Positions 2,218 to 43,558 of a stretch of DNA of 64,000 bases are shown here, one piece after another (position 1 is the first letter of the stretch; each line of letters starts with the position of its first letter). Source of the stretch: Dehalococcoidia bacterium (lineage in GTDB: Bacteria > Chloroflexota > Dehalococcoidia > DSTF01 > JACRBR01); NCBI GenBank assembly GCA_041494685.1, contig JBGQBE010000002.1, forward strand, positions 124,001 through 188,000, written 5' to 3'. The notes beneath the pieces are model-generated. The model did not search any database, was not told the DNA's origin, and saw only the letters and a list, made by a program, of their open reading frames with translations. A program made the position numbers and the translations under genes.

Positions 2218-2691
2218 TCAGCTGATCTTCGTGATCTTCATGGTGACGACGCCCTTGGGCACGTTCACCTGCACCTCGTCGTTCAGCTTCTTGCCCATCA
2301 GCGCCCGGCCGACCGGCGACTCGTTGCTGATCTTGCCCTCGCGAGGATCCGCCTCGGCCGGGCCGACGATCACGTACTCCTGCGCCTTGCCCTCGCTGGT
2401 CTTCACCTTCACGTGGCTGCCGAGGATGACCATCTTCGACTTGTGCGCGCCGTCTTCGTCGATGATCGCGGCGTTCTGGATCAGGCTCTGGAGCTGCTGG
2501 ATGCGGCCCTCCACCATCGCCTGTTCGTTCTTGGCGTCCTCGTACTCGGCGTTGTTCTGGGTGCTCGCCAGCTCTTTCGCCTGGTGGATCTTGTTGGCCA
2601 CCTCGCGGCGGCGCACCGTCTCCAGGTACTGGAGTTCTTCTTCTATCTTCGCAAGACCGTCACGGGTGATCGGCTGGGCCTTCTCTACCAT
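2218..2691 (-). CDS. greA: Transcription elongation factor GreA
   Basis: NAEYEDAKNEQ, IVGPAEADP and ISNESPVGRALMGK motifs. Start placed at ATG 2691 (MVEKAQPIT). Confidence 0.93.
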   Translation of the reverse strand: MVEKAQPITRDGLAKIEEELQYLETVRRREVANKIHQAKELASTQNNAEYEDAKNEQAMVEGRIQQLQSLIQNAAIIDEDGAHKSKMVILGSHVKVKTSEGKAQEYVIVGPAEADPREGKISNESPVGRALMGKKLNDEVQVNVPKGVVTMKITKIS

Positions 2692-2816
2692 GTGCGTCCT
2701 CCCGATGCCGTGGCGCCGGGCGCGAGTCGCGCCTGCAAGTGCCTGTGCCGCGTTATGTCTGGCTCGTTCAGTGTCGGCGGGGCGGCAGGCCGCCCGCAGG
2801 ATGGGTTCCGGTTGTG

Positions 2817-2849
2817 AAAAAAAGAACTGAGGCACCGGGCCGCCTCAGT
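2817..2849 (-). terminator. Intrinsic terminator in the greA 5' leader (possible attenuator)
   Basis: Minus strand ACTGAGGC-8 nt loop-GCCTCAGT followed by TCTTTTTTT, lying between the predicted promoter and greA. Confidence 0.8.
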
Positions 2850-2865
2850 CGTGAAGTTCGCGCCG

Positions 2866-2895
2866 AGTATAGCCATGCGCGCGTACACCTGTAAA
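2866..2895 (-). promoter_or_regulatory. Sigma70-type promoter for greA
   Basis: Minus strand TTTACA-N18-TATACT. Confidence 0.7.
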
Positions 2896-3135
2896 GATGC
2901 CGGTACGACAAACCTGTTACAACGTCGCGCTGAACGCCGTAGCCGCCGGGGCGCTCTGGTAGAATGGCGGCGCTCCCGCGCGGCCTCGCGGCCTCATGGT
3001 AAGCGGCGATTTGCCCTACCGTAGCGCGAGGGCGACACTGCCTGAGACGGAGCGCCGGGCGCCCCGGCGGCCACACCCACGACCAAGCACCTGGAGGTAT
3101 CCGTCGCCTCCGCCGCAGCGGAAGCGCGATTGCCC

Positions 3136-4800
3136 ATGGCGAGCGAGCAACGGGGTCCTTTCGACCGGATCCTTAAGACCAACGCCGGTGACGAGCCCGG
3201 CCAGCCCGACCGCGCTCCCATCTACATCGTGGGCACGATCGTCGGCCTGGCGCTGTTGCTGCTCGTCCTGTTACTGCCACCGGTGTCGATCCTGAGCCGC
3301 GGCGGCGGCGGCAACTCCGATATCCCCAGCGGCCCCGGCAACGCCGATACCTATACCTCCACCGTGCGCAGCGGCATCCCGAAGTTGCCGGCCGGCCTCA
3401 GCGCCGCCTCGGCCATGTTCGACCTCGCGGCGCCGGTGGACCAGCGCGGCGCGTCGCGCATCACGATCCCGTTGAAGGAGAAGCAGACCGACCAGCGCAA
3501 CCTGGCGCTGTACTCGTACGTCAGCGGGAAATGGCAGCGTCTGGCCGACGTGACGCTCGTCTCCAACGGCACCGCCGCGCGCGCGAGCGTCAGCTCGCTG
3601 CCGGGCAACGTCGCCGTGCTGCGCCGCAGCCACGCGACGATGCAGGTGGCCGGGTCGATCCCCGCCGGAACGACGCTGGACCCGCAGGCGGAGCCGGTGA
3701 TCACGACGCTCCACCCGATCGTCTTCATCCCGGTCAACGACGCCACGATCGTCGGCCTGCCGCCCGCCGTGCCGCCCGCGGGCTACCGCGTCGTTCCGGC
3801 CATCGTGGCGCCCAACCCGGAGACGATCGATACGCTGCTGCGTTCCAGCGACCTGACGAACAAACACGCCGCGAACATCGCCGCGGAGGTGAAGAAGGGC
3901 AATTTCGCGGGCATCGACGTGGACTACCGCAACGTCAACCCGACGCTGAAGGACCGCTTCAGCGCGTTCGTCACAACGCTGGCGAAGGCGCTGCACGAAG
4001 ACGGCCGGACGCTGACGCTGACGCTGCCGCTGCCGGCGAACGACAACGGCACCGTGAACTCGGGCGCGTACGACTGGGAGACGCTGGGCAAGCAGGCAGA
4101 TACGATCGAGCTGGCCGGCGAACTGGATCAGGAGCTGTACTTCCAGAACACCGAGGCCGCGCTCACGTACATCACGGACAAGGTAGACCGCACCAAGGTG
4201 CTGCTCAGCATCAGCTCGCTGAGCATCGAGCGCGGCGGCGACGGCCTGAAGACGATGTCGCTGGACAACGCGCTCGCACGCGCCAGCACCGTCGCGCTGA
4301 AGTCCACCGGCGAGATCACCACCGGCGCGCAGGTGCAACTCGTCGCGAAGAACGTCGCGCCGGGCGAGGGTGCCAGCGGCCTGCACTGGGACGACCAGTC
4401 GCGCTCCGTGACGTTCAGCTACCCCGGCCTCGGCGGCAAGCGCACCGTCTGGATCGCCAACCAATTCAGTGCGGCCTTCCGGCTCGAGTTGGCGCAGCGC
4501 TTCGGCCTCGGCGGCGTCGCGATCAGCGACGTCTCGACCGAGGACGGCGGCGCGGACGTATGGGCGCCGGTGCAGCAGCTTTCGGACGCGGGCAGCCTGA
4601 CGCTGGTCCGCCCCAACGGCGCACTGCTACAGCCCGCCTGGTCCGCCGCCGACGGCACGTTGGACCCGCAGGCCGGCGACACGACAACCTGGACGGCGCC
4701 CGCCAAGGCCGGCACGTACCAGGTCCTGCTCGTGGTCAGTGACGGCGTCATCCGCGCCGGTCAGCAGCTCTCTCTCGACGTCGTAGACAAGCCACAGTAG
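3136..4800 (+). CDS. Membrane-anchored protein with a GH18-like TIM-barrel domain (probably non-catalytic) and a C-terminal Ig/PKD-like domain
   Basis: N-terminal TM helix. GNFAGIDVDYR matches the GH18 DxDxE position; AYDWETLGKQAD and RFGLGGVAI resemble YaaH/YdhD-like proteins. Confidence 0.65.
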   Translation: MASEQRGPFDRILKTNAGDEPGQPDRAPIYIVGTIVGLALLLLVLLLPPVSILSRGGGGNSDIPSGPGNADTYTSTVRSGIPKLPAGLSAASAMFDLAAPVDQRGASRITIPLKEKQTDQRNLALYSYVSGKWQRLADVTLVSNGTAARASVSSLPGNVAVLRRSHATMQVAGSIPAGTTLDPQAEPVITTLHPIVFIPVNDATIVGLPPAVPPAGYRVVPAIVAPNPETIDTLLRSSDLTNKHAANIAAEVKKGNFAGIDVDYRNVNPTLKDRFSAFVTTLAKALHEDGRTLTLTLPLPANDNGTVNSGAYDWETLGKQADTIELAGELDQELYFQNTEAALTYITDKVDRTKVLLSISSLSIERGGDGLKTMSLDNALARASTVALKSTGEITTGAQVQLVAKNVAPGEGASGLHWDDQSRSVTFSYPGLGGKRTVWIANQFSAAFRLELAQRFGLGGVAISDVSTEDGGADVWAPVQQLSDAGSLTLVRPNGALLQPAWSAADGTLDPQAGDTTTWTAPAKAGTYQVLLVVSDGVIRAGQQLSLDVVDKPQ

Positions 4801-4860
4801 CGAGCACGTTGCCCGCGGGCGTAGCGCACGCACACGGCCCGCTCCGGTATGGTGCATGCC

Positions 4861-4890
4861 TTGACAGGAATATGCTCAATAGGCTATATA
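4861..4890 (+). promoter_or_regulatory. Sigma70 promoter with an imperfect ATAT..ATAT operator palindrome, leaderless
   Basis: TTGACA-N18-TATATA, 6 nt upstream of ATG 4897, with no SD sequence. Confidence 0.65.
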
Positions 4891-4896
4891 CAGGGC

Positions 4897-5202
4897 ATGC
4901 CCACAACGTTCGACGTCGTAGCCGAGCCGCACCGCCGCCGCATCCTGGACGCCCTGCGCGGCGGCGAGCACTCTGTCGGCGAGCTGGTCAACGGGCTCGG
5001 CCTCAGCCAGCCCGCCGTCTCCAAGCACCTGCGCGTCCTGCGCGAGGCGGGCCTCGTCGCTGTGCGCGTGGACGCGCAGCACCGCCAGTACCGCCTGCGC
5101 CCGGCGCCGCTCGCCGAGCTGGACGCCTGGCTGGCACCCTACCGCGCATTCTGGGCGGGGCGCCTCGACGCGCTGGAACGGCATCTCGACAAGGAGGAGT
5201 GA
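4897..5202 (+). CDS. ArsR/SmtB family transcriptional regulator
   Basis: AEPHRRRILDAL and SQPAVSKHLRVLREAGLV HTH motifs. Confidence 0.93.
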   Translation: MPTTFDVVAEPHRRRILDALRGGEHSVGELVNGLGLSQPAVSKHLRVLREAGLVAVRVDAQHRQYRLRPAPLAELDAWLAPYRAFWAGRLDALERHLDKEE

Positions 5203-5204
5203 CC

Positions 5205-6176
5205 ATGGACGAGGGGACGATCCTGCAGATCGGAAGCGGTCACGCGCTGCGTTTCGAGCGCCATCTGCCGCATCCGATCGAGAAGGTGTGGGCGGCGCTG
5301 ACCGACCCCGCGCAGTTCGCGCAGTGGCTGGCCTCCGGCGAGATCGACCTGCGCGCGGGCGGGCGCGCGCGCCTGCGACACGCCGACGGCACGTCGATGG
5401 TCGATGGCCGGGTCACCGCCGCCGAGCCGCCCCGCCTGATCGAGTACCACTGGGCGACGCAGGACGGCGACGGCGGCCCCGTGCGCTGGGAGCTGTTCGA
5501 GGAGGACGGCGGCACGCGCCTCGTCTTCACGCACATGCTCGCCGACCCGCTCGCCTACCTGCTCGCGCTGGCCGGCTGGCACACGATCCTCGACTCGCTG
5601 GCATTCTGGTTCGCGGGCGGAGCGCCGGCGGGCCGGCCGACGTGGGAGCAGCTCCACGACGGCTACACGCGCCGCTATGCGAAGATCACGCGGATCGACG
5701 ACGCGAAGGTGCGCGAGACGGCGAACGGCATCGAGGTGCGCTTCGAGCGCTACCTCAACCACCCGGTCGAAAAGGTGTGGGCCGCGCTCACCGACCCGAC
5801 CCGTCTCGCGGAGTGGCTGGCGCCCGGCGAGGTCGAGCTGTGCGCGGGCGGCCGCATTCACCTGCGGTTCGAAAACACCGGCGACGCGCTCGACGGCGAG
5901 ATCCTGGCGGTCGCAGCGCCGACGCTGTTGGAGTACACATGGCACGGCGCGGGCGAAGGGAGCGTGCGGTGGGAGCTCTCGGAGTACGCCATCGGCACGC
6001 GCCTGGTTCTGACGCACACGCTGCCGTCCTCCGCACCGCGAGAGTCGTACCTGGCGGGCTGGCACACGCACCTGGAGCTGCTCGGCTCCACGCTGGAGGG
6101 GCGTCCGCTGCCATGGCCCTGGGAGCGCTGGCAGGAGCTACGCGACTACTACCTCGGTCTCGCCGCACCGCGCTGA
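5205..6176 (+). CDS. Tandem SRPBCC/AHSA1-domain protein
   Basis: Two repeats of LRFERxLxHPxEKVWAALTDP...GTRLVxTH...AGWH. RBS AAGGAGG. Classic ArsR-SRPBCC pairing. Confidence 0.88.
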   Translation: MDEGTILQIGSGHALRFERHLPHPIEKVWAALTDPAQFAQWLASGEIDLRAGGRARLRHADGTSMVDGRVTAAEPPRLIEYHWATQDGDGGPVRWELFEEDGGTRLVFTHMLADPLAYLLALAGWHTILDSLAFWFAGGAPAGRPTWEQLHDGYTRRYAKITRIDDAKVRETANGIEVRFERYLNHPVEKVWAALTDPTRLAEWLAPGEVELCAGGRIHLRFENTGDALDGEILAVAAPTLLEYTWHGAGEGSVRWELSEYAIGTRLVLTHTLPSSAPRESYLAGWHTHLELLGSTLEGRPLPWPWERWQELRDYYLGLAAPR

Positions 6177-6235
6177 CGCCCCCCACGCGCCGTGCCGGCG
6201 TGGCATCATGCGGGCATGCGAAACGGCCGGGCACG

Positions 6236-6808
6236 ATGCGGGTGATCGCGGGGAGCGCGCGCGGGCGCACGATCAAGGGGCCGCCGCGCGTCCGGGCGTC
6301 CGGCAAGCCCGGCATCCGGCCCACGTCCGACATGGTCCGCGGCGCCATCTTCGACATGCTCGACGCCCTCGGCGCGGACTACGGCCGCGTCCTCGACGTC
6401 TACGCCGGCACCGGCGCGCTCGGCATCGAGGCGCTGAGCCGGGGCGACGGTTCGGCGGACTTCGTCGAGAACGACGCGGAGGCGGCGCGGATCGTGGCGG
6501 CGAACCTGGCGCTGCTCGGCCTCGAATCTCGCGGGCAGGTGCACCGCTTGACAGCGGAGCGCGCCCCGGAGCGGCTTTCCGGCCCGTACACCCTCGTCCT
6601 CGCCGACCCGCCATATTACGATGAGGGCGCCCTGGCGGCGGTGCAGGCGATCGCCGCCTCGCCGCTGGTGGACGGGCGGACGGTGTTCGTGTATGAACAC
6701 CCCCGGAGGACCGAACCGCCGCCGTCGCTCGGGCCCCTGCCGCTCTACCGGTCGCGGCGGCACGGCGACACCGTGGTATCCATCTACGCGGAGGAGGAAC
6801 CCTCGTGA
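6236..6808 (+). CDS. rsmD: 16S rRNA m2G966 methyltransferase RsmD
   Basis: MRVIAGSARGR, RPTSD, LDVYAGTGALGIEALSRG, DPPY. Lies upstream of coaD. Confidence 0.92.
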   Translation: MRVIAGSARGRTIKGPPRVRASGKPGIRPTSDMVRGAIFDMLDALGADYGRVLDVYAGTGALGIEALSRGDGSADFVENDAEAARIVAANLALLGLESRGQVHRLTAERAPERLSGPYTLVLADPPYYDEGALAAVQAIAASPLVDGRTVFVYEHPRRTEPPPSLGPLPLYRSRRHGDTVVSIYAEEEPS

Positions 6809-7287
6809 CGATCGCCATGTTCCCGGGACGCTTCGATCCGGTCACCAACGGCCACCGCGACATCGCGCGCCGCGCCGCCCGCATGTTCGAGCATGTGATC
6901 GTCGCCGTCGCCGACCTGAAGGCGAACTACCTCTTCAGCACGCGCGAGCGGGTCGCCCTGCTCCGCGAGGCCGTCGCCGACATGCCGAACATCGAGGTGA
7001 AGCCGTACTCCGGCCTGACGGTGGAGTTCGCGCGCTCGGAAGGTGCGACGGTGATGGTGCGCAGCATGCGCGCCGTGACCGACTTCGAGGCCGAGTTCGA
7101 CATGGCGCTGATGAACAAGAAGATGGCGCCGGGCATCGAATCGGTCTACCTGATGGCCAGCCTGGAGCACCTGTTCATCAGCGGCACGCGTATCCGCGAG
7201 GTGTCGGGACTGGGGTATGATGTGAGCGACCTGGTGCCGCCCCACGTCTGGGCGGCGCTCCAGAAGAAGTACGCGGAGCGCGGCTAG
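6805..7287 (+). CDS. coaD: Phosphopantetheine adenylyltransferase
   Basis: FPGRFDPVTNGH, FSTRERV, RAVTDFEAE motifs. Confidence 0.94.
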   Translation: MTIAMFPGRFDPVTNGHRDIARRAARMFEHVIVAVADLKANYLFSTRERVALLREAVADMPNIEVKPYSGLTVEFARSEGATVMVRSMRAVTDFEAEFDMALMNKKMAPGIESVYLMASLEHLFISGTRIREVSGLGYDVSDLVPPHVWAALQKKYAERG

Positions 7288-7866: not shown

Positions 7867-8685
7867 CTAGTAGCGCGCGTAGCGCTCCTCCAACATGCGC
7901 AGCAGCATGGGCCGCTCCTCTTCGATCCCTTCGGTCAGGCGCTCCACCACGCGCACGAACAGCCAGCGCTCCACCAGCGCCATGTCCTGCGGCCGCACCC
8001 GGCGGTACGCCCGCAGGTACGCCGCCCGCACGATCCTCCGCGCAACGCGCGCACCCACGCGCACGACGAGCGGCGTGCCCGGCGGCAGCGCGCCGCCGCC
8101 GAGCAGCAGCAGCGTGCGCGCAACGTCGGCGTGCGGGTCGCCGCGCGTCGCGTTCGGCCAGTCGATCACGACGGGCCCGCGCGACGACAGAAGGATGTTG
8201 CCCGGATGGAAGTCGCCGTGCAGCAGCGCGCCGCCATCGGGCATGTCCGCGACCGCGCGCGATGCGGCGGCAGCGATGTGTTGCGGCAGATGCGGCAGTA
8301 CCGCCGCCGCGTGCAGGCCGATCGAGTCCCGCGCCGACATGAGTTCCGGCGGCGCCGCGGCAGCGTGCAGGCGCGCGTGCTGGTCGCCGCAGATCAGGCC
8401 GATCTTCCACACCTGCCACGGCTTGCCGGCGAGCAGGGTCAGCAGGTCCGGGCCGTCGACCCGCTCCATGATCAGCCCGTGACGGCCGTCGATCACCGTC
8501 TCGCCGAGGATCGCCGGCACCGATGGCACGACCGCGCGCGCCGCGATCATCCCACGGCGCTCGTTGTCCAGCGACGCGCTGCTGCGGGCGTCGCGGAACA
8601 GGCGCAGCACGGCGCCGTCTTCCCACGCGTAGATCTCGGCCTCGCGTCCTTCGGCGATGAGCGTGAGGCCGTGCGTCGTCGTCAT
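7867..8685 (-). CDS. Aminoglycoside/choline phosphotransferase (APH) family kinase
   Basis: GREAEIY, LLHGDFHPGNILL and VVIDW motifs. Confidence 0.88.
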   Translation of the reverse strand: MTTTHGLTLIAEGREAEIYAWEDGAVLRLFRDARSSASLDNERRGMIAARAVVPSVPAILGETVIDGRHGLIMERVDGPDLLTLLAGKPWQVWKIGLICGDQHARLHAAAAPPELMSARDSIGLHAAAVLPHLPQHIAAAASRAVADMPDGGALLHGDFHPGNILLSSRGPVVIDWPNATRGDPHADVARTLLLLGGGALPPGTPLVVRVGARVARRIVRAAYLRAYRRVRPQDMALVERWLFVRVVERLTEGIEEERPMLLRMLEERYARY

Positions 8686-8773
8686 GCCGACATCATGGCG
8701 GACGCCGCGCGAACGATGCCAGCGGACGGGGGTGCAGTTTTCGCAGGCTGACGGGCTCAGGCCGTACGCGCGG

Positions 8774-9388
8774 CTACGGCCAGAGCGAACTCCAGCCGCC
8801 GCTCGTCGCGGCCTCGACGTAGAGGCCGGCGGAGTACAACGAGCGGCGGGCACGGCCCCCCGTACGGCGTCGCTGCGGAAGGCGGCGCTCCACGTCGTCA
8901 ACGCGCATCTGCAATGTGCGCACCTGGGTACCGAGCGTCCGCACCTGCGTGCGCAGCTGCCGCGTCTCGGCTCCCCGCGGCGTCGCGCCGACCTGCCGCT
9001 CCAGCGCCTCGATGCGCCGTGTGACTTCGCGCAGGGCGGCGGGGTCGGTCGCGGGTGCGGCAGGCGCGACGGCACGGGCGGGCGGCGGTGCGGCGGCGGC
9101 AGGTCGGACGGGTGCCGGCGCCGGCGCGGCGGCCTGTGCGGGCGGCGGTGCGGCGGCCTGCACCACGACGGGCGACGCGGCCGCCGGCGCGGGCGACGCT
9201 GGAGCCTCGGAGGCGGCGCGCGGCATGATCGGCAGCGCAGGCGGCTCCGGCTCGGCCGCGGCGGCGATGATCATCGGCGGCGCTTCCGGCTCGGGCGCCG
9301 GCGCAGCCGCGGCGGCCGGCGGCGGCGCCGCGGCCACTTTCGACATCATCGCGTCGATCTCTGATTGCGAGAGGACGGAATCGCTCAC
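8774..9388 (-). CDS. Uncharacterised protein: FliM-like N-terminal CheY-P-binding peptide, Pro/Ala linker, coiled coil
   Basis: N-terminus MSDSVLSQSEIDAMM versus E. coli FliM MGDSILSQAEIDALL. GTG start overlaps the TGA of the upstream HD-GYP gene (GTGA). Confidence 0.8.
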   Translation of the reverse strand: MSDSVLSQSEIDAMMSKVAAAPPPAAAAAPAPEPEAPPMIIAAAAEPEPPALPIMPRAASEAPASPAPAAASPVVVQAAAPPPAQAAAPAPAPVRPAAAAPPPARAVAPAAPATDPAALREVTRRIEALERQVGATPRGAETRQLRTQVRTLGTQVRTLQMRVDDVERRLPQRRRTGGRARRSLYSAGLYVEAATSGGWSSLWP

Positions 9389-10458
9389 ACGTCCACCTCA
9401 ACGATGATCTTCTTCTGGTGATCCGGGGCGCTCAGGTCCAGGTCGAACGGCTCCCTGACGGGCACGCCGTTGATCGTCAGCACCCGCACGACCGGCCGGG
9501 CGACGTGACCCGGATTCGGGGCGGAGACCACGCCGCCCTCGCCGCTGCTCAACACCACGGTGATGCCGGCGGGGTACTGCGGTATCTGCCGTGCGAAGAT
9601 CTTCACCAGCTCCGGGTCGAACAGCTCGCCGGAGTAGGCGATGATGAACTCGATTGCCTCGTGTGGGCGCAGCGCCTTGCGGTACGGCCGGCGCGAGCGC
9701 AGCGAGATGTACGTGTCCGCGATGCCGAGGATGCGCGCGTAGAGCGAGATCTCGTGCCCCTTCAGGCCGTTGGGGTAGCCCTTGCCGTCCCAGCGCTCGT
9801 GGTGCTGCGCGATCGCCTCGATCGCGTCCTTCTGCAGGCCGGACGACTTCAGCATCTCGATACTGAGCTGGGGGTGCTTCTTCACCAACTCCCACTCGTC
9901 CTTCTCCAGCGGCCGCGGCTGTTCGAGCAGCCCGGGGCGCAGCGACATGTAGCCGATGTTCATCAGCGCCGCGGCGATGCCGAGCGTGAGCAGCTCGAGC
10001 TTCTCCGCGCCCGCGAGCCGCCCCAGCACCATCGCCAGCTCGGCGACCTTCACGGGGTGGATGTACTGGTACCCCTGGAGCGAGTAGGTACCGGAGATGT
10101 CCGCCTCGCCCATCAGGGTCGGGTACAGACAGCTCACCAGCTTGTTCATGGGCGGCACGAGGCCCATCAGGCCGCCCTTCTGGATGCCCGAGGTCACGCC
10201 CTGGTTCATCACCATCAGGATGTTGAGCGCCTGCGAAGCTTTCGCTTCGAGGTCGGCGGCGAACAGGGTGCCGACGACGATGTCCTCGGTGCGGGAGTCC
10301 TCGACCAGGATCTCCGCGGAGCACGAGCGCGCAAGCAGCGGCAGCTTCTCCTCGGTGAGGGTTTCGCCCTGCGTCAGCACGGGCATCCCCTTCACGTCGT
10401 AGATCGTGGACCGAAGAATCATCCCAACGCGAGCGTTGGCGGCCGGCACGCGTCGCAC
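9385..10458 (-). CDS. HD-GYP domain protein with a degenerate HD motif
   Basis: HHERWDGKGYPNGL and RRPYRKAL are present. The LHDIG position reads LMNIG. Confidence 0.9.
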   Translation of the reverse strand: MRRVPAANARVGMILRSTIYDVKGMPVLTQGETLTEEKLPLLARSCSAEILVEDSRTEDIVVGTLFAADLEAKASQALNILMVMNQGVTSGIQKGGLMGLVPPMNKLVSCLYPTLMGEADISGTYSLQGYQYIHPVKVAELAMVLGRLAGAEKLELLTLGIAAALMNIGYMSLRPGLLEQPRPLEKDEWELVKKHPQLSIEMLKSSGLQKDAIEAIAQHHERWDGKGYPNGLKGHEISLYARILGIADTYISLRSRRPYRKALRPHEAIEFIIAYSGELFDPELVKIFARQIPQYPAGITVVLSSGEGGVVSAPNPGHVARPVVRVLTINGVPVREPFDLDLSAPDHQKKIIVEVDV

Positions 10459-10476: not shown

Positions 10477-11286
10477 TCACGCCGTGCGGCGCAGCTGCGC
10501 CGCCTCGGTGGTACGCCGATAGAAGTTGCCGCCCAGGCGCTCGTAGCCCAGGCTGTCCGTGCCGAGCAGCGCCTCGGTGCCGCCGACGAACAGCACGCCT
10601 CCCGGGCGCAGCGACGCCCGGAAGCGCTCGAAGAGCCCGCGCTTCGTCTCGTCGGAGAAGTAGATCATCACGTTGCGGCAGACGATCAGGTCGAGGTTCG
10701 GCTCGAAGCGATCGGACAGCAGGTTCACCTCGCGGAAGTCGATGCGCCGGCGCAGCGTGTCGACGACCGTGTGGTGATCACCATCGCGCGTGAAGAACGA
10801 CTCCAACCGCTGCTTCGAGACGTTGCGCACGTCTTGCTGCACGTACGGCCCGCCGGCCTTGGCCCGCGCCAGCACGACCCGGTCGATATCGCTGGCCATG
10901 ATCGTGGCGCGGTGCCCGGCGTTCAGTTCGTGCAGGATCATGGCGATCGAGTACGGCTCCTCGCCGTGGGAGCAGGCGCTGCTCCAGATGCGGATCTTCT
11001 GGTTGCCCGCAAGGATCTCGGGCATGATCTGGTTCTGCAACCGCTCGAACTGCTGCGGGTCCCGGAAGAACTCCGACACGTTGATCGTCAGCATGTCTCG
11101 CAGCGCGTCCAGCGCCTCCTGGTCCTTCGGCAGATCGCGGCAGAACTCCGCCACGCTGTTGGGCGCGCGCCGGGAGACGAACGTCTCGAGCCGGCGGCGC
11201 ATCTGCGCCGTCTTGTACGCGTCGATGTCGATCGACAGCAGCTCCTTGATGCGCCGCTTCAGCAGTCCGTAATCGGCGTCGTTCAT
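10477..11286 (-). CDS. cheR: Chemotaxis methyltransferase CheR
   Basis: TINVSEFFRD, IWSSACSHGEEPYS, CRNVMIYF. ATGA overlap with cheB. Confidence 0.96.
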   Translation of the reverse strand: MNDADYGLLKRRIKELLSIDIDAYKTAQMRRRLETFVSRRAPNSVAEFCRDLPKDQEALDALRDMLTINVSEFFRDPQQFERLQNQIMPEILAGNQKIRIWSSACSHGEEPYSIAMILHELNAGHRATIMASDIDRVVLARAKAGGPYVQQDVRNVSKQRLESFFTRDGDHHTVVDTLRRRIDFREVNLLSDRFEPNLDLIVCRNVMIYFSDETKRGLFERFRASLRPGGVLFVGGTEALLGTDSLGYERLGGNFYRRTTEAAQLRRTA

Positions 11287-12359
11287 ACCGCTCGCTCCAA
11301 CCTTCCGGCGCGCGCACGACACGCGTGCACGATCGCACCGGCCACGTTGTCCAGCGGGGCCACATGGTCCACGTATCCCGCTTCGGCCACGCTGCGCGGC
11401 ATGCCGTAGACCACGCAGGTCGATTCGTCTTCGGCGATCACTTCGCCGCCGGCTTCCTTGATCAGCCCGGCGCCGCGCGTGCCGTCCTTGCCCATGCCGG
11501 TCAGCACCACGCCGACCGTCGCCGCGCCGTAGACGGCCGCGGCGGACTCCATCAGCACGTTCACCGCGGGGCGCACGCCGCACTCCGACGGCGTCTGCGT
11601 CAACTCGATCAGGCCGCCCTTGTGCACGGCCATGTGGAACCCGCCGGGCGCGATCAGCACCGTGCCGCGTTCCACGCGAGAACCCGGCCTGGCTTCCTTC
11701 ACGGGCAGCGGGCCCAGTTCGTTCATCCGCTCGGCCAACGCGCGTGTGAACCCGGGCGGCATGTGCTGCACGATCAGCACCGGCACGCTCAGGTCCGCCG
11801 GCAGCGCCGTCAGCACGGCGCGCAGCGCCTGCGGCCCACCGGTGCTGCTGCCGATCACGACCACGCGGTCCGCCCATTCCATGCCCAGCGGCGCGATCGG
11901 CGCGGAGGATGCCGTGCGCAGGTGCGGGCGGTGCAGACGCGCCTGGGCGGCGGCCGCGATCTTCTCGCGCAGCTCGTCGATCACCCCGTGCACGGTGCCC
12001 ACGCCGCCCTGCACGGGCTTGGCGATGAAGTCGACGGCGCCGAGGTCCAGCGCCTTCATCGTCGCTGTGGCGCCGGCACTGGTCAGGGAGCTGACCATGA
12101 CGGCGCGCGTCGGCGTGTCGCGCATGATGCGCTCCAGCGCCTCCAACCCGTTCAGCCGCGGCATCTCCACATCGAGCGTGATGACGTCGGGCCGCAACGC
12201 GGCGACCTTCTCTACGCCGTCCTGGCCGTCACGCGCGTAGCCGATGACCTCAAACCGCTCGTCCCTGGCGAGTTCGCGGCAGAGGATCGCGCGCACCGTC
12301 GCCGAGTCGTCGATGACGAGGAGGCGAATCTTCTTGTCGGTGTTCATCGCTGATTCCAC
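11283..12359 (-). CDS. cheB: Chemotaxis methylesterase CheB (receiver + esterase)
   Basis: Receiver domain (IDDS, TLDVEMP), then GSSTGGP, VQHMP and LTGMGKDG. Confidence 0.96.
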   Translation of the reverse strand: MESAMNTDKKIRLLVIDDSATVRAILCRELARDERFEVIGYARDGQDGVEKVAALRPDVITLDVEMPRLNGLEALERIMRDTPTRAVMVSSLTSAGATATMKALDLGAVDFIAKPVQGGVGTVHGVIDELREKIAAAAQARLHRPHLRTASSAPIAPLGMEWADRVVVIGSSTGGPQALRAVLTALPADLSVPVLIVQHMPPGFTRALAERMNELGPLPVKEARPGSRVERGTVLIAPGGFHMAVHKGGLIELTQTPSECGVRPAVNVLMESAAAVYGAATVGVVLTGMGKDGTRGAGLIKEAGGEVIAEDESTCVVYGMPRSVAEAGYVDHVAPLDNVAGAIVHACRARAGRLERAV

Positions 12360-12387: not shown

Positions 12388-12744
12388 CTAGGCGACGAGC
12401 TTGGAGAGCGCGGACTTCACGCGGTCCGGCTCGAACGGCTTCACGACGAAGTCCCGCGCGCCCGACTTGATCGCTTCCATCACGATCGACTGCTGCCCCA
12501 TGGCGGTAACCATGGCCACGCGCGCCGCGGGGTCGAACGCCAGGATCGCCTTCAGCGCCTCCAGGCCGTCCATGCCGGGCATCGTGATGTCCATCAGCAC
12601 GGCATCGGGCTTGTTCGTCTTGTACGATTCGACGGCCTGCGCGCCGTCGCCCGCCTCGATGACCTCGTGCCCGAGTTCCTTCACCATCGCGGCATTCCGC
12701 ATGCGCAGGAAGGCCGAGTCGTCTACAACCAGCACTTTCGCCAT
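12388..12744 (-). CDS. cheY: Chemotaxis response regulator CheY
   Basis: Single receiver domain with VDDS, MDITMP, TAMGQQ and VKPF (Bacillus/Thermotoga-like CheY). Confidence 0.93.
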   Translation of the reverse strand: MAKVLVVDDSAFLRMRNAAMVKELGHEVIEAGDGAQAVESYKTNKPDAVLMDITMPGMDGLEALKAILAFDPAARVAMVTAMGQQSIVMEAIKSGARDFVVKPFEPDRVKSALSKLVA

Positions 12745-12786: not shown

Positions 12787-13293
12787 CTAGAGCTCATAGC
12801 TCGACCCTCCCACGGTGGAGATGGTCAACGCGCCGGACCCCGAGAGCAGCCGCACGGTCCGTCCGTGCGTCCCGCCCACGTCCTCGCCGCGCAGGCGCAA
12901 CCCCAACGCCTTCATCGTCGCGCGGGCGGCCTCGACGTTCCGCTCGCCGATATTCAGTCTCGCCTCGAATCCCTTCGCCACCGCCATGTGCGCGCCGCCG
13001 GCCATCCTGAAGACGGTGCGGGCGGGCGTCGCGCCCAGCGTTTGCAGGCGCGTCAGCATGATCGGGATCCCCGCGTCGACAAACCGCTCGAGCGTCTTCG
13101 GACGGTTCCCGCTGGTGCTGTCCGGCAGCACGAAGTGCGCCATGCCGGCCACCTTCGCCACGGGGTCGAACGCGGCGAACGCCACGCACGAGCCGATGCC
13201 GTAGCAGACGAGGAGGGTATCCGGGTCGTTCGTAACGTGCAGCTCGCCCAGGCTGATCACCACGGACTGCTCACGGCTCGCCATCAACGTCAT
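12787..13293 (-). CDS. cheD: Chemoreceptor glutamine deamidase CheD
   Basis: GIGSCVA, GMAHFVLP, IGERN, EDVGGTHGRTV. Confidence 0.94.
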   Translation of the reverse strand: MTLMASREQSVVISLGELHVTNDPDTLLVCYGIGSCVAFAAFDPVAKVAGMAHFVLPDSTSGNRPKTLERFVDAGIPIMLTRLQTLGATPARTVFRMAGGAHMAVAKGFEARLNIGERNVEAARATMKALGLRLRGEDVGGTHGRTVRLLSGSGALTISTVGGSSYEL

Positions 13294-13901
13294 GCAGCCC
13301 GCTCCCATTCCAGAAGCTTCTCCATCAAGCTCGCGCTGGGCATGACGAAGAACATGCCCGTGATCTTCCGGTCCGCCACCTCGAACGTCGTCTCCGCGAC
13401 GAAGGCGTCGTCCTGCGTCATCAGCAGGTCCGCGGCGACGAGGTCCAGCAGCGCGCCGGCCATGTCCAGCATCACCGCCGGCGGCGACGGCCGCAGGTCC
13501 ATGCCGACGTCGTCGGCCAGCACGTTCAGGAACGACGCACCGACGATGTTGCCCATCTCGCCCAGCGCGGACTGTTCCATCTCGCCGAGTGCCGTCGTCG
13601 TGCCTTCCGGCTGCATCATCAGCAGGTCCACGAACGCGCAGGCGATGCCAGGGTCGTAGATCAGCATCAGGTGGCCATCGGCCGAGCCGGAGACCGTCAG
13701 GTAGATGCCCACGGACATCACCTCAGGGCCGCCGACAAGCTGCGAGATCTGCGCGATCGGGATCTCCCGCAGATTGAACGTCTTGGTCGTGATGGTCTGC
13801 CCCACCATCTGGGACAGGTTGTCCATGGACTTGATCGTGCCCTTCTTGATCAGATCCGCCCACAGGCCGGAAGCGCCGCCGCTCATCTGCACCTCGGTCA
13901 T
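13290..13901 (-). CDS. cheC: Chemotaxis phosphatase CheC
   Basis: SALGEMGNI (ExxN) and SPPAVMLDMAGA. Located between cheA and cheD. Confidence 0.9.
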   Translation of the reverse strand: MTEVQMSGGASGLWADLIKKGTIKSMDNLSQMVGQTITTKTFNLREIPIAQISQLVGGPEVMSVGIYLTVSGSADGHLMLIYDPGIACAFVDLLMMQPEGTTTALGEMEQSALGEMGNIVGASFLNVLADDVGMDLRPSPPAVMLDMAGALLDLVAADLLMTQDDAFVAETTFEVADRKITGMFFVMPSASLMEKLLEWERAA

Positions 13902-13919
13902 ATTGTCCGTTCCTCCGTC

Positions 13920-15935
13920 CTACGCTGCCTTCAGAAGCGTGGCCACGTCCAGGATCAGGGCCACTTCACCGTCGCCCAGGATGCTGGCACCGGCCACGCC
14001 ACGCGCGCGGCCGATGGTGCTTCCAAGCGATTTCACCACTACCTCTTGCTGATCCATCAGCCGGTCCACGGCCAGCGCCGTGGGCCGGTCGCCCACGCGC
14101 ACCACCACCATGAAGTCCTCCGAGCCCGCCTCGGCGCCCAGCTCGGCGATCCCGCTCAACCGGTAGAGGGGCATCACGGTGCCCCGCAGGTTGATCACCT
14201 CGCGGTTGACGATGTTCTGCACCTGCCGCGGCTCCAGCCGCCCCGTCTCCTGCACGTAGCTGAGCGGGATGGCGTACACCGCGCTCGACGACTCGACCAG
14301 CAGACCGCGGAACGTCGCCAGCGTGAGCGGCAGTTGCAGCGTGAACACGCTGCCGCCGCCCGGCCGGGACTCCACCGTCACCACGCCGTTCAGCGCCTGG
14401 ATACTGCTGCGCACGACGTCCATGCCCACGCCGCGGCCGGAGATGTCGGTCGTCCGCGCGGCGGTCGAGAGACCGGACTCGAAGATCAGGTCCAGCGCCT
14501 CCTGCTCCGTCATGCGCTCCGCCGCTTCGGCGGCGATCATGCCGCGCTCGACCGCTTTCGCCTTCACCGCGGCCGTGTCGATGCCCTTGCCATCGTCGGT
14601 GAGCGTGATCAGGATGCGCCCCTGGTCGTGCGTCGCCGCCAGGCGGATCGTGCCGGCTTCCGGCTTGCCCGCGGCATGCCGTACGTCCGGCAGCTCGATC
14701 CCGTGGTCGACGGCGTTGCGCAGCAGGTGGATCAGCGGGTCCTTGATCTTCTCGATGACGGCACGGTCGATCTCGGTGCCCTCACCTTCCGTCTCGAACT
14801 CCACCTGCTTGCCGGTGCTGCGCGCGACGTCGCGCACGAGGCGCGGGAACTTGCTGAACAGCGTGCCGATCGGCAGCATGCGGGCCTGCATCATGCCGTC
14901 GTTCAGGTCTTCAACAACCTTGCCGATGTGCGCGGAAATCTGCTCCAGCGACTGCACCGTCGCGTCGCCGTGGTAGCGGGCCTGCAGGGTGCGCGCCAGC
15001 TGCGTCACGCGCGTGCGGTCGATCACGAGCTCACCCACGAGGTTCATCAGCGCGTCGAGCTTATCGACGTCGATGCGCACCGACTGCTGCGGCTCGATGC
15101 GGGCGGCGTCGTCGCCGCCGCGGCCGCGCGCGTCAGCCGGACCGGCGGCCGCGGGCAGATCCGCCGGCGCCGCCAGCGTCGCGTCGTAGGGCTCCACCAG
15201 GGCGCCTATGATGTCTTCTACCTCTTCCACCACCGCGCGCAGCTCTTCCGCGGGCGCCGAGGTGATGAGCACCAGCTCGATGTCGTCTGCGGCCTTCTCG
15301 GCCTGGATGTCGTCGAGCGACGGCATCGACACCACGATCTCGCCGTGCAGCGACAGCTCCGTGATCACCTGGAAGCAGCGGACCGCGGCCCACGCCGTGC
15401 CCGGCGCCAGCGACGCCTTCACCTTCCACACGTGCAACCCGTGTCCGGCGGCCGCCTCGATCTGCGTCCGCGCCGACGCATCGGCATCGATCGCAGCGGC
15501 GAGCGTGGCGCGCGCCGCGCCGCCGCCCGCGCTGGCGGCGGCCGGCCCGTCGGCGGCGGCCCGCAGCATCGCGACCTGCGCGGAGATATCGACGTTGTCG
15601 TCGCCGTCCGCGATCACGCCGTGCATCAGCGCCTTCAGGCCGTCCAGGCTCTCCAGCAGCGCGTCCACCAGCTCCGGCGTCACGCCCAGCACACCGCGGC
15701 GGACGCGGTCCAGCACGTCCTCCATGTGGTGCGTCAGCTCCGCCATGCGGGTGAAGCCCAGCATTCCCGACGATCCCTTGAGCGTGTGGGCGGCACGGAA
15801 GATCCCCTGGAGCAGGTCCGTGTTACCGGCCTCCTTCTCCAGGCGAATGATGTCTTCGTCCAGTACCTGGAGATGCTCTTCGGCTTCCTGAAGGAAGACC
15901 TTCAGCTCTTCAGGGTCGATGCCTGACGGGGGCAT
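13920..15935 (-). CDS. cheA: Chemotaxis histidine kinase CheA (P1-P5)
   Basis: FRAAHTLKGSS (Hpt), P2 domain, LMNLVGELVI, HLLRNAVDHGIE, DISGRGVGMDVV, C-terminal CheW domain. Confidence 0.98.
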   Translation of the reverse strand: MPPSGIDPEELKVFLQEAEEHLQVLDEDIIRLEKEAGNTDLLQGIFRAAHTLKGSSGMLGFTRMAELTHHMEDVLDRVRRGVLGVTPELVDALLESLDGLKALMHGVIADGDDNVDISAQVAMLRAAADGPAAASAGGGAARATLAAAIDADASARTQIEAAAGHGLHVWKVKASLAPGTAWAAVRCFQVITELSLHGEIVVSMPSLDDIQAEKAADDIELVLITSAPAEELRAVVEEVEDIIGALVEPYDATLAAPADLPAAAGPADARGRGGDDAARIEPQQSVRIDVDKLDALMNLVGELVIDRTRVTQLARTLQARYHGDATVQSLEQISAHIGKVVEDLNDGMMQARMLPIGTLFSKFPRLVRDVARSTGKQVEFETEGEGTEIDRAVIEKIKDPLIHLLRNAVDHGIELPDVRHAAGKPEAGTIRLAATHDQGRILITLTDDGKGIDTAAVKAKAVERGMIAAEAAERMTEQEALDLIFESGLSTAARTTDISGRGVGMDVVRSSIQALNGVVTVESRPGGGSVFTLQLPLTLATFRGLLVESSSAVYAIPLSYVQETGRLEPRQVQNIVNREVINLRGTVMPLYRLSGIAELGAEAGSEDFMVVVRVGDRPTALAVDRLMDQQEVVVKSLGSTIGRARGVAGASILGDGEVALILDVATLLKAA

Positions 15936-15986: not shown

Positions 15987-16472
15987 CTACGCGGCTGCGA
16001 GCAGCTCACGGCTGAGGACGGTCTCGTCGTCGGCGCTCAGCAGCGCGTCGCGGTCCACCAGGATGATCAGGCGGTCGTCCAGATTGACGATGCCCTCGAC
16101 CACGCGCATGTTCGACCCGGCCACCACGTTCGACGGCGGCTGGATGCGGTCGCCCGGGACGCGCAGCACTTCCGTGACGGCGTCCACGATCATGCCCACG
16201 TCCTCGCCGTTCACCTCGACGACGACGATGCGGCTCTCCGCCGTCGCGTCGCCCATCGTCAGTCCGAAGCGCTTGCGCAGGTCCATCACGGGGCAGATGC
16301 GCCCGCGGAGGTTGATCACGCCCTCGATCATGTCAGGTGCGTTGGGCACGCGCGTGATCTCCTGCATGCGGATGATCTCCCGCACCGCCTGGATCTCCAG
16401 CCCGTAGATGTCGGTGGCCAGCCGGAACACGACCAGTTGCAGCTCGGCCCTCGTCAGCGTTTCCTCAGACAT
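15987..16472 (-). CDS. cheW: Chemotaxis adaptor CheW
   Basis: QLVVFRL, GVINLRGRICPVMDLR, GMIVDAVTEV. RBS AGGGAGGT. Confidence 0.96.
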   Translation of the reverse strand: MSEETLTRAELQLVVFRLATDIYGLEIQAVREIIRMQEITRVPNAPDMIEGVINLRGRICPVMDLRKRFGLTMGDATAESRIVVVEVNGEDVGMIVDAVTEVLRVPGDRIQPPSNVVAGSNMRVVEGIVNLDDRLIILVDRDALLSADDETVLSRELLAAA

Positions 16473-16934: not shown

Positions 16935-19655
<2,721 letters not shown>

Positions 19656-19853
19656 ATCGTGTCCTGGGTTGCGGTTGGCATCACGAGACAGTGTACCGAA
19701 ACCGCGGCGCAGCCCCGTACGCCGCACCCGCGGATGCAGCGGCGAATTCCCGTACGTAACCGGATCTGAACCGACGCGCTGGAATCCGCGGCCGGCCAGG
19801 CCGGTCCGTCCAACCACCCACGCGCCCCGATGGCGGCCAGCTACAATCCCACC

Positions 19854-41431: not shown

Positions 41432-43558
41432 CTACGCGGCCTTGCGCTGCTCCGGCCGCAGTTGCACCGGCTGCTTGCCCGCTCCGTCCGTCGCCAGCTT
41501 GAACTCCGACACGCGGCCCAGCAGGTCGTCCGCGATGGCGCCCAGTGCGTGCGCCGCCGCCGTCACTTCCTCCACCTGCGCCGTCATCTCTTCGCTCGAC
41601 GCCGACACCTCCTCCGTCGCCGCAGAGTTCTCCTCCGCCACGCCGGCGATGTTCTCGATCGCTTCGCCCACGCCCCTGGCCGTGTTGCGCATCTGCGACG
41701 TCGCCGCAGCGTTCTGCTCCGCGACGCTCGCGATGCCACCGACGTTCTCCACCACGTTCTCGATGACGTCCCGCACTGTCGCGATCACCGTCACCATCTC
41801 GCCGCCAGCCGTCCGCAGGTCCTCAGACCCGCTCGCGATCAGCTGCATCTGCCCGTTCACGTCCTCCACCGCCTGCAGGATGCGGCCCAGCGCCGCCCCC
41901 GCCTCGCCGGCCACCTGGGCGCCGGATTCGGTCTCCGTCGCGCCCTCGGCCATCACCTTCACACTGCTCTCGACGCTGCGCTGGATGCCGTTGATCAGGC
42001 CACTGATCTCCTTGGTGGCTCCGGCCACCCGCTCGGCCAGCTTCCGCACTTCGTCCGCGACCACCGCGAAGCCGCGTCCCTGCTCGCCCGCCCGCGCCGC
42101 CTCGATGGCGGCGTTGAGCGCCAGCAGGTTGGTCTGCGCCGCGATGTCGTCGATGACGGCGACGATGTTGCCTATCTCCGCGCTCCGCTCGCCCAAACGT
42201 GCGATTTCGTCCGCCGCCTGGTCCACGGTGCCTTTGATCCGCGCCATCCCGTCGATCGTCTTCTGCACCATCTGCGCGCCATCCTGCGCCGTGTCCGAGG
42301 CAGCCTTCGCCCCCGTCGCCGCGTTCTGCGCGTTCGACGCCATCGTGTCGGCCGCCTTCGCCACCTTCGCCCTGGCCGTCTCCTCCAGCGAGCGCGCGGA
42401 GCTCTTCAGCTCATCGACGGAGGCGTTCACGTCCCGCACGCTGCGCGACGTCTGGTCCGTGCCTTCCGCCACCTGCGCGATGGCACTGTCCAGCTGGTTC
42501 ATCGACGCGCTCACGTCCTGCACGCTCTTCGCGGTCTGGTTCGTGCCTTCCGCGACCTGGTTCGACGTCTGCGCGATCTGCTGCGTCGCCTGCGCCGCCT
42601 GGTCCGCGCTCTGGCTCAGCTCACGCTGTGCCGTGTTCACCTGCTCCGCGCTGCTCTGGATCTGCCGCATCAGGTCGCTCAGCGAGTGCCGCGTCTGGTT
42701 ATAGTTGCCGATCGTCGCCACCATGTTGTCGATGATGTCGTTCGTGGCGATCGCCGCTGTGCCTACCTCATCATTCGGGTACGTGTCGATCTTCGCCGTC
42801 ACTGGCGTCACGTCGACCGTCAGGTTGCCCCCCGCGATCGCCTTCATGCCCGCGCTCAGGTCCGCGATGCAGTGCTCCTGCAGGCTCTTCAGCCGCTTCA
42901 CCAGTTCGCTCAGCGGCTTCGTGATCGACCGCGCCACGAAGAACGCCGTCCCGGCGGCGATCAGGCTGGCGATCACCGCAATGGCGATCATCAGCGTCGT
43001 CGCCGTGCTCGTCGTCGACTTCGCGGCGGCGTCCGACTGCTTCGCGACGGTCGCCGTCTCCTTGCTGAACTCGACGACCTTGTCGAAAGCGTCCTGGAAG
43101 TGCTGGCCGCCAGGGCCGTAGAGCGCGGCGGTGACCGCGCCGGCCTGATCACCCGCGTCGGCCTTCGCCAGCGGGCCCGCGTCGCGCGCCTTCGTCCAAT
43201 CGCCGATCGCCGTCTCGGCGGTCGTCAGCTGGTCCTTCTGCGTCGCGTTGAGATTCTCGCCTCGCAGCGTCTCCAGGTCCGCGGCCATCGCCGTGTCAAG
43301 CTCCTTGATCGTCGTGCCGAACTCGGCCCGCTTCTCCGCCGGCGCCGACACGTAGCTCAGGATAGCGATGCGCTGCTGGAGCATGTCGCGGCGCAGCGCA
43401 GCGGCCTTGTCCGTCTGCTCAACACTGTTGGTATACAGCCCGTCGGCCTTGCTGCCCACGCTCTTGATCTGCGTGATCGCGACCACCGATGCGATGATCA
43501 GCGCAAGCACCCCGATGCCGAACCCTGCGAATAGTTTCGTACGAACGCTGAGCGCCAT
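41432..43558 (-). CDS. Methyl-accepting chemotaxis protein (2 TM, 4HB-like sensor, HAMP, long signalling domain)
   Basis: [35 protein letters not shown] hairpin tip. Confidence 0.96.

Follow-up and report, generated by a model that had tools for sequence, protein, structure and literature searches.

We describe a small gene at the end of a chemotaxis (che) operon in an uncultured Dehalococcoidia-class bacterium of the Chloroflexota (NCBI GenBank assembly GCA_041494685.1, here G000; 3.29 Mb, 97.6% complete). The whole stretch of DNA that was analysed, called the window below, comprises 64,000 nucleotides (nt) of contig JBGQBE010000002.1 (positions 124,001 to 188,000, forward strand). The gene, referred to as the ORF (open reading frame), lies at 8774..9388 on the minus strand (204 amino acids (aa), GTG start, stop codon at 8774-8776). 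Its product is a candidate tether for phosphorylated CheY (CheY-P), and we assign it to group A of a family defined here. We propose that it acts as a stand-alone CheY-P docking adaptor for F1-type chemotaxis in bacteria that have an archaellum and no flagellum, the likeliest output device being the archaellum motor; we put the probability of this reading at slightly above one half (about 0.55). Judged by sequence, operon position and phyletic pattern, the family is the best available candidate for the missing link between chemotaxis and the archaellum in Bacteria, and binding of CheY by its members is likely.

The translation of the ORF starts VSDSVLSQSEIDAMM (window 8774-9388, minus strand, 204 codons) and has, like FliM, an LSQxEIDALL-type N-terminal peptide (SVLSQSEIDAMM, at residues 4-15), which is conserved in homologues. 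Four segments can be told apart with the help of an AlphaFold2 (AF2) model built on a 13-sequence alignment: the candidate FliM-like CheY-P-binding peptide (residues 1-19; 9332..9388, minus strand), with a helix at residues 8-19 (predicted local distance difference test, pLDDT, ~83); a Pro/Ala linker of ~95 aa predicted to be disordered (residues 20-115; 9044..9331, minus strand; pLDDT 49-66, no secondary structure); a helical hairpin common to groups A and B (residues 116-176, with helices at 116-135 and 140-176; 8861..9043, minus strand; pLDDT ~90); and an Arg-rich stretch followed by a conserved tail, RRSL[WY]SAxLYV[DE]..GxW (residues 177-204; 8777..8860, minus strand), modelled with low confidence. 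Residues L6, Q8, I11 and D12 of the N-peptide are invariant in the 13 group A sequences, and a short conserved motif, IIAAxPEPEPPAxPLPPRA, is visible in alignments of the linker. The hydrophobic moment of the group A tail is 0.29 for a strand periodicity versus 0.14 for a helical one (n=23), so its pattern appears more strand-like than helix-like. A six-frame translation of the whole genome (6.58 million residues) contains the pattern L[ST]Q.[ED]ID.[LM] just once, at the N-terminus of the ORF, and the motif is therefore more than a chance match. A preliminary description of this DNA, made from the letters alone, had pointed out the ORF, its Pro/Ala-rich stretch, a heptad-like region and the C-terminal end GGWSSLWP, all of which are found in the translation; the heptad-like region, which it took for a coiled coil, is modelled by AF2 as the hairpin. 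It had also noted the lack of the FliM middle domain and of the FliN/SpoA domain, and indeed a Pfam scan (E<=0.01) assigned the ORF to 0 families, so that no FliM, CheC or FliN domain is present. Two other resemblances were considered and dropped: an RRxxxR motif of the cyclic di-GMP (c-di-GMP) type before the tail is not conserved among homologues in the 13-sequence group A alignment, and a PopZ-like scaffold found no Pfam match, the resemblance being limited to the layout of helix, linker and helices.

As had been claimed, the ORF start and the stop of the HD-GYP gene that lies upstream of it (9385-10458; Pfam HD_5, 4.8e-33) overlap in the sequence GTGA, and a Shine-Dalgarno-like site (GAGGTGG) lies just 5' of the start. 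The ORF was also said to close the che operon. It does come last after cheR and the HD-GYP gene; however, an APH-family kinase gene follows next downstream on the same strand, and no promoter or terminator is predicted around the 3' end of the ORF, including the stretch between the two genes. At the orthologous loci of G002 and G019 the next listed ORF after the family member is on the opposite strand. Since GC-rich DNA such as this yields long ORFs in several frames, and codon-position GC does not distinguish the frame of the ORF from its antisense partner, we asked whether it might be a chance ORF or the remnant of a degenerate fliM or fliY. This has almost no probability left and is already refuted by conservation: other genera and metagenomes have full-length homologues (30-54% identity) that share its architecture and operon position, the ORF has no similarity to FliM, CheC or FliN, and the 36 genomes of the host's bacterial family gave no FliM. 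Contigs of four sediment runs yielded just short identical pieces and low-complexity cross-matches, without informative variants.

A word-based search with the ORF returned one homologue. Searches of genomes gave orthologues in three genera of the same bacterial family, all with one shared architecture; three loci were confirmed when 185,579 species genomes were scanned. At E<=1e-3, a profile search against 1.84 billion representatives produced 45 matches. Of these, 18 were read; the other 27 match the helical region only and are mostly much longer proteins. Among the 18, 10 have the architecture of the ORF (group A) and five form group B, in which the N-peptide, linker and helices are followed by a four-cysteine zinc ribbon and an EGWWGWWP end; P0037 is a doubtful relative of group B, and P0028 and P0040 are noise. 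The two groups are homologous over the hairpin (hhalign probability 98.4%, E 8.7e-15), and the GGWSSLWP end of the window protein has a spacing identical to that of EGWWGWWP. With a group B profile, 93 clusters were found in a collection of 5.8 billion proteins, all of them annotated as 'hypothetical' or mis-named; the named clusters stem from Dehalococcoidia or Chloroflexi. Among 91 new group B representatives, 77 have the strict N-peptide, 11 have near-variants (e.g. MLNQDAIDAL) and three are N-terminally truncated; the zinc ribbon is present in all 91 and the W tail in 90. Group B (zinc ribbon and WWGWWP tail) is the main form of the family. In 87 group B sequences, column identity is 0.76-0.99 for the C-terminal module, 0.69-0.70 for the N-peptide and 0.34-0.39 for the linker, which makes the N-peptide the second most conserved segment.

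A third variant occurs in genus g9 (8222-8884 of locus L023 in G008 and 2379-3335 of locus L076 in G022), where it also sits after cheR and the HD-GYP gene. It starts with the N-peptide VLSQAEIDAML, has a much longer disordered region, lacks the hairpin, tail and zinc ribbon, and ends in a different conserved helical motif (..RVPDV..LL.EL.E..GLLGIE). The N-peptide is the sole part common to all three variants. The family resembles no described domain: relaxed Pfam scans of groups A and B returned sub-threshold coiled-coil and zinc-finger noise only. The ArlC domain FlaC_arch (PF05377) was never above the Pfam threshold in the family and had no match in the window ORF; below threshold it turned up in four out of eight group B members, alongside many other coiled-coil families and with a best E of 0.074. 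An NCBIfam scan of the family proteins found nothing real, and in the ESM Atlas the sole match was the family's own 'hypothetical' cluster (136 members). Within the collections searched, this uncharacterised family has been seen only in Chloroflexota. We define it by an N-peptide, a disordered linker, a putative C-terminal anchor, a position directly after cheR and the HD-GYP gene, and occurrence in archaellated, FliM-less Chloroflexota, all of which apply to the ORF.

Group B proteins also contain a conserved His/Cys-rich motif, GHHHEECIAAGD, just before the hairpin (e.g. residues ~68-80 of the protein encoded at 10593-11156 of locus L043; column identity ~0.80), which may be a further metal site beside the four-cysteine ribbon.

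The genomic context of the family is uniform. In the archaellated-lineage che loci that were read, a family member follows cheR and the HD-GYP gene in 11 out of 11 (G000, G002, G019, G041, G008, G022, G040, G366, G192, G174 and G413). Within the host's bacterial family (f1; 36 genomes), archaellin is found in 35 genomes, FliM in none and CheA in seven, and in six of these seven an N-peptide gene lies directly after cheR and the HD-GYP gene: a group A gene in G000, G002, G019 and G041, and the g9 variant in G008 and G022. The seventh, G042, has just a 2.3-kb contig at the locus, and no N-peptide ORF was seen on that contig. Outside f1, group B genes occupy the position after cheR and the HD-GYP gene in G040 (of the same order) and in G366, G192, G174 and G413 (of the same class). 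In nine loci where the distance was measured, five show an overlap of 4 nt between the HD-GYP stop and the start of the family gene and one an overlap of 1 nt, with a gap of 32-44 nt in the other three. The archaellum operon adjoins the che operon in three of the 11 loci: in G366 and G192 it is on the same strand after three regulator genes, and in G174 it converges on the che operon.

We also surveyed the phylum with an even sample of 401 Chloroflexota genomes (archaellin cut-off E<=1e-18; G089 counts only in this tally, and G021 only in the 36-genome tallies). CheA was found in 63 genomes and archaellin at the strict cut-off in seven. All four genomes with both strict archaellin and CheA carry the family (G000, G192, G366 and G413), and none of the three with archaellin and no CheA does (G026, G108 and G228). 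G174 has CheA and a family member, and an archaellin gene below the strict cut-off is visible at its locus. No full-length family match was found in the other 58 CheA-positive genomes of the sample. The family thus tracks che genes, and not archaellum genes alone. The preliminary description had read the ORF as a detached CheY-P receptor, a reading that would fall if the motif were not conserved, if homologues were not linked to che genes or if the ORF were a broken fliM or fliY. As far as sequences can tell, that reading has gained support: the N-peptide is kept (invariant L6, Q8, I11 and D12 in the 13 group A sequences, strict pattern in 77 of the 91 group B representatives), the homologues are linked to che genes at all 11 che loci read, and the ORF, with its conserved length and architecture and no FliM, CheC or FliN domain, is not a fragment in a genome where no FliM is detected.

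A partial match to the C-terminal module of group B was observed in G219 (~6040-6267 of locus L060), a genome without a match to CheA or strict archaellin; it may be a remnant or a different protein.

The statement that flagellar genes are absent from the window holds beyond it: FliM, FliG_C and FlhA have no match in the 97.6%-complete genome, and neither has CheF (PF04283). The genome does contain at least five archaellin genes, two ArlG/F-like genes and one ArlCDE-like gene, and its NCBIfam scores are 263.6 bits for FlaH/ArlH (cut-off 194), 636 for FlaI/ArlI (cut-off 550) and 456.7 for ArlJ (below the curated 570). These archaellum genes are on contigs C33, C51, C27 and C19. The ArlCDE-like gene (G000:C51:2030-2734) has no Pfam match to Arch_fla_DE or FlaC; it is so labelled because it lies between arlB and arlG and because PMC12488501 describes such homologues as typical. 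F1 systems have been linked to archaella (PMC13747009). In the published data sets, 58 of 226 archaellated Chloroflexota genomes carry an F1 chemosensory system, and a paper of 2026 names a cultured SAR202 strain that has both systems.

Several features of the archaellum loci are of interest in themselves. A gene for a conserved protein of 137 aa, p137 (G000:C51:5410-5823, locus L049), was found directly after arlJ in every f1 archaellum cluster viewed, including those of che-less genomes. Near its N-terminus the protein carries the conserved motif RxEVEALLPAS, and it ends in a helix, VDDVDMGDLLEDL..AALRRRKAA. There is a weak likeness (hhalign probability 26%, E 7e-4; a lead only) between p137 and the C-terminal helix seen in the g9 variant. 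The arlH-arlI pair is on a contig apart from arlB, the arlCDE-like gene, arlG, arlF and arlJ, and two large genes with GGDEF domains lie ~6-11 kb upstream of it (G000:C19:23023-28863). In G174 (locus L059), two tandem ArlI-like ATPase genes are found in the archaellum operon (3576-7067) and two tandem CheY-like genes in the che operon (13312-14080).

Flagellated relatives of the same class allow a comparison of the two kinds of host. G279 and G421 have both CheA and FliM, and no FliM was found in G174, G366 and G192. FliM begins ..VLTQREIDALLS in G421 and ..TLSQREIDALLS in G279, with the same pattern as the N-terminus of the ORF (the FliM starts of the two relatives also read ..AVLTQREIDALLS and ..ATLSQREIDALLS), and in the che regions of these two genomes there is no HD-GYP signature and no N-peptide ORF except FliM. 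The nearest solved relative of the CheY encoded in the window is T. maritima CheY (7.7e-36). Window CheY shares 63% and 57% identity with CheY of the flagellated relatives and is thus as close to them as to CheY of group B hosts (58-62%), and the GQQSIVMEAIKSGARDFVVKPF region, a segment that forms the alpha4-beta5-alpha5 face of CheY, is almost unchanged in the flagellated relatives. In the simplest history, loss of the flagellum would have left in place a bacterial F1 CheY that recognises the FliM peptide, and this peptide is now carried by another protein. In two flagellated genomes of another family, G254 (locus L027) and G155 (locus L033), we observed MLSQEEIDAL on a FliN/SpoA-type protein with a Pro/Ala linker, so movable N-peptides have a precedent in the phylum.

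From these data a mechanism may be outlined. Like the FliM N-peptide, the N-terminal helix would bind phosphorylated CheY in its alpha4-beta5-alpha5 groove; the disordered linker of ~95 residues would be a leash that gives reach; and the C-terminal hairpin and tail (in the main form, the zinc ribbon and WWGWWP) would fasten the protein to the output device. This would raise the concentration of CheY-P there, as happens at the flagellar C-ring, where the FliM N-peptide gathers CheY-P before second-site action. The device is most likely the archaellum motor (ArlCDE-like protein, ArlH, ArlI or ArlJ), because the che system is a complete one of the F1 motility type, the archaellum is the sole motility organelle detected and the two operons are adjacent in three genomes; the family would then be a functional replacement of archaeal CheF. 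The HD-GYP enzyme, which is co-translated, could belong to this output complex as well or serve as a second target; its invariable adjacency and frequent translational coupling make it the main alternative or additional one. A relay to an archaellum in the manner of CheF had been one option of the preliminary description, and it is favoured because the host is archaellated and has no CheF; the other options, a sink or scaffold and a split FliY, are possible readings that gained no support. A fuller version, to which we give somewhat less than even odds, makes the family the missing bacterial counterpart of CheF: Dehalococcoidia-class Chloroflexota exchanged the flagellum for a horizontally acquired archaellum, the F1 CheY was kept, and the FliM peptide was grafted onto a new hairpin/zinc-ribbon protein that docks at the motor, with a dedicated HD-GYP enzyme. 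The outcome would be a bacterial-archaeal hybrid switch, with an archaeal rotary motor controlled by CheY-P and possibly also by c-di-GMP.

The HD-GYP partner and the tail that it shares with other proteins bear on the choice of target. In a tree of 21 HD-GYP proteins, the che-linked enzymes are split from tail-bearing paralogues with a support of 100/100, which indicates that the che-linked HD-GYP is an old, dedicated operon partner and that the tail is a portable module in f1. The motif HHERWDGxGYP is invariant in the che-linked enzymes. One tail-bearing paralogue is encoded on contig C31 of G000 (locus L018, 1483-2652, minus strand), with the group A tail at its end after a disordered Pro/Ala linker of ~100 aa, and paralogues with the same tail were found in the che-less f1 genomes G020, G017, G016, G047, G004 and G046, and also in G019. 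Their tails follow the pattern RRSL[WF]SxxxY[VL][DE]..GxW, each after a long disordered linker; che-less archaellated genomes are among their hosts. The tail pattern has exactly two occurrences in G000. A word-based search with the last 55 residues of the paralogue returned the paralogue itself and one close relative, and in the AF2 model of the tail-bearing paralogue (an alignment of 10 sequences only) the tail has a pLDDT of ~50 and no confident docking on the enzyme. For group B, a search of five of its genomes for DNA coding for WGWWP found only the family member, an MMPL-like transporter and a frame of 7 codons. In the unrelated MMPL-like membrane protein, RWGWWP comes immediately after a transmembrane segment, which gives only a hint that the W-rich end of group B resembles a membrane-interface motif.

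Several observations weigh against the archaellum motor as the target of the adaptor. The che operon and the archaellum genes are on different contigs in G000, and in G015 (51% complete, no CheA found) a group A gene lies away from che genes. The C-terminal modules differ by lineage (the tail of group A, the zinc ribbon and W tail of group B, the helical end of g9) while the archaellum parts and the HD-GYP are conserved in the same lineages, so that no single docking site is implied. Because the group A tail is also on HD-GYP paralogues in che-less genomes, it may be a general anchor, e.g. to the membrane, rather than a motor-docking element. There is no detectable homology of the ORF to CheF (Pfam) or to the ArlCDE-like protein (hhalign probability ~1-2%). 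A flagellar motor is not switched by the N-peptide alone and needs a second contact with CheY-P; none is identified here. The loci that we read are from one class, and archaellated, che-bearing Chloroflexota of other classes are known in the literature.

The HD-GYP gene itself suggests another output: the ORF may tether CheY-P to the HD-GYP phosphodiesterase, as a split, three-part equivalent of an REC-HD-GYP protein (REC: receiver domain); the che pathway would tune c-di-GMP hydrolysis without acting on the motor directly, and c-di-GMP would control the archaellum or lifestyle. We consider this unlikely as the explanation by itself, although it overlaps the archaellum reading and both could hold. 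The HD-GYP gene immediately precedes the family member in all 11 loci, with a start/stop overlap in six of the nine measured; the che-linked enzymes, which themselves lack an REC domain, cluster separately across lineages (100/100) and share the invariant HHERWDGxGYP; the fusion of the group A tail to HD-GYP paralogues is a link of the Rosetta-stone type; and 17 GGDEF domains were found in the host genome, from which c-di-GMP is probably made. However, the fused paralogues are a clade apart from the che-linked enzyme, AF2 did not dock the tail on the HD-GYP of the fused paralogue (pLDDT ~50, 10 sequences), no PilZ receptor was detected in the host genome, and F1 systems with CheB, CheR, CheC and CheD are typically fast controllers of motility.

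It is rather improbable that the protein is a CheY-P sink or a phosphatase-targeting factor, which would buffer the signal or present CheY-P to CheC (as a split FliY) and so speed termination of the signal rather than transmit it. CheC and CheD are encoded in the same operon, a stand-alone peptide with a long linker could serve as a competitor or buffer, and FliY of the Bacillus type joins the same peptide with a CheC-like domain (PMC9126983). But the ORF has neither a CheC-like domain nor any sign of CheC contact, and in the che loci read the family gene is beside the HD-GYP gene, never beside cheC. The conservation of the C-terminal module (0.76-0.99 in the 87 group B sequences) suggests specific anchoring, for which a simple sink has no need, and archaellated, che-positive cells would be left without a known output. 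A role as a membrane or polar scaffold without CheY binding, in which the N-motif is a relic or serves another partner, is more doubtful still and in our view very unlikely. In its favour, the tails contain much Arg and Trp, RWGWWP directly follows a transmembrane segment in an unrelated MMPL-like membrane protein, and the tail is also on non-che proteins; however, the N-peptide is conserved in group B well above the linker (0.69-0.70 versus 0.34-0.39), its key positions are invariant in group A, it is common to all three variants including g9, and the gene tracks che genes, the family being carried by 0/3 of the che-less archaellated genomes of the phylum sample.

The che operon that the ORF belongs to is of the F1 type and is arranged on the minus strand of the window in the order cheW-A-C-D-Y-B-R-HD-GYP-ORF (Pfam assignments). 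It encodes CheW (15987..16472), CheA with Hpt, P2, dimerisation, HATPase and CheW domains (13920..15935), a CheC-type phosphatase (13290..13901; CheC, 1.6e-09), CheD (12787..13308), CheY of 118 aa, the presumed ligand of the N-peptide (12388..12744), CheB with REC and methylesterase domains (11283..12359) and the CheR methyltransferase (10477..11290; CheR, 9.7e-53, over aa 266-439 of a long ORF at 10477-11877). The true start of cheR is probably near 11290, as the longest ORF, which reaches 11877, overlaps cheB. The che-linked HD-GYP protein (9385..10458) has 357 aa, an intact HHERWDGKGYP motif and, by Pfam, no REC domain. There are two methyl-accepting chemotaxis protein (MCP) genes in the genome, one of which has its signalling domain in the window (41765..42310, minus strand, in an open frame of 752 aa; the same as G000:C2:165765-166310). 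Beyond these genes, the SecA ORF (window 16935-20555, minus strand) is 1206 aa in its longest form and its SecA_DEAD domain begins only at residue 307, so either its start is far downstream or it has an unusual N-terminal extension.

It was only in 2025 that working archaella were demonstrated in Bacteria. According to PMC12488501, Chloroflexota lack CheF, and some other component may have evolved instead; PMC13747009 and its preprint repeat the absence of CheF and name no adaptor. Of these two papers, the structural one suggests that a different component must bring the CheY signal to the motor. A full-text literature search, which covered papers and left the supplementary source data of PMC12488501 outside, returned no paper on such a CheY-archaellum adaptor in Chloroflexota; the family is therefore undescribed within the literature searched. 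It provides a concrete candidate: a protein of ~200 aa that combines a conserved, putative anchor with a 15-residue peptide whose function is known. If the proposal is true, a signalling pathway has been rewired to a foreign motor by moving a short linear motif, with the response regulator unchanged; the family could then help to locate the archaellum's switch surface, and one would have to ask whether c-di-GMP acts on an archaeal-type motor. Even the minimal claim, that of a free-standing FliM-peptide protein outside any flagellar system, is already unusual.

Compared with known systems, the window protein is closest to FliM in its first part. The 'EIDALL' peptide of FliM and FliY binds the alpha4-alpha5 groove of CheY-P and is a high-affinity tether before second-site action (PMC9126983), and the first ~15 residues of the ORF protein share the pattern x-L-[ST]-Q-x-E-I-D-A-[LM]-[LM] with FliM (that of the same class included), FliY and some FliN; a tether followed by a flexible linker is expected in both FliM and the ORF protein. 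The two differ in the rest: the ORF lacks the CheC-like middle domain, its residues 20-115 being predicted to be disordered, and the C-terminal FliN/SpoA domain, its remainder (hairpin and tail or zinc ribbon) matches no known family, and its host has no detected flagellar genes. With CheF (DUF439, PF04283) it shares the proposed job, which is to connect an F1-type CheY to the archaellum motor, and the family gene, like cheF in archaea, stands among che genes and close to arl genes. In structure they are different: CheF, as described in PMC9126983, is a dimer with two PH-like domains together with a long C-terminal domain that docks on ArlCDE and binds CheY-P near the phosphorylation site and not in the alpha4-alpha5 groove, whereas the AF2 model of the ORF consists of a helix, a disordered linker and a helical hairpin, with no relationship to CheF in sequence or predicted structure. 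FliY of the Bacillus type (N-peptide, CheC-like and FliN domains) likewise places the N-peptide alongside a CheC-type phosphatase in one pathway; here, however, peptide and CheC are encoded by separate genes (cheC-cheD-cheY-cheB-cheR-HD-GYP-ORF), and the ORF has no CheC/CheX match. RpfG is a response regulator with REC and HD-GYP domains. In both cases a receiver signal is paired with an HD-GYP domain, but here CheY, adaptor and HD-GYP are three co-encoded polypeptides and the HD-GYP protein has no REC, so that any coupling would be non-covalent, via the peptide. The ORF protein is not a FliM, a FliY or a CheF, the domains that define these being absent; by analogy, the family would work like the FliM N-peptide on its input side, and as a whole presumably like CheF.

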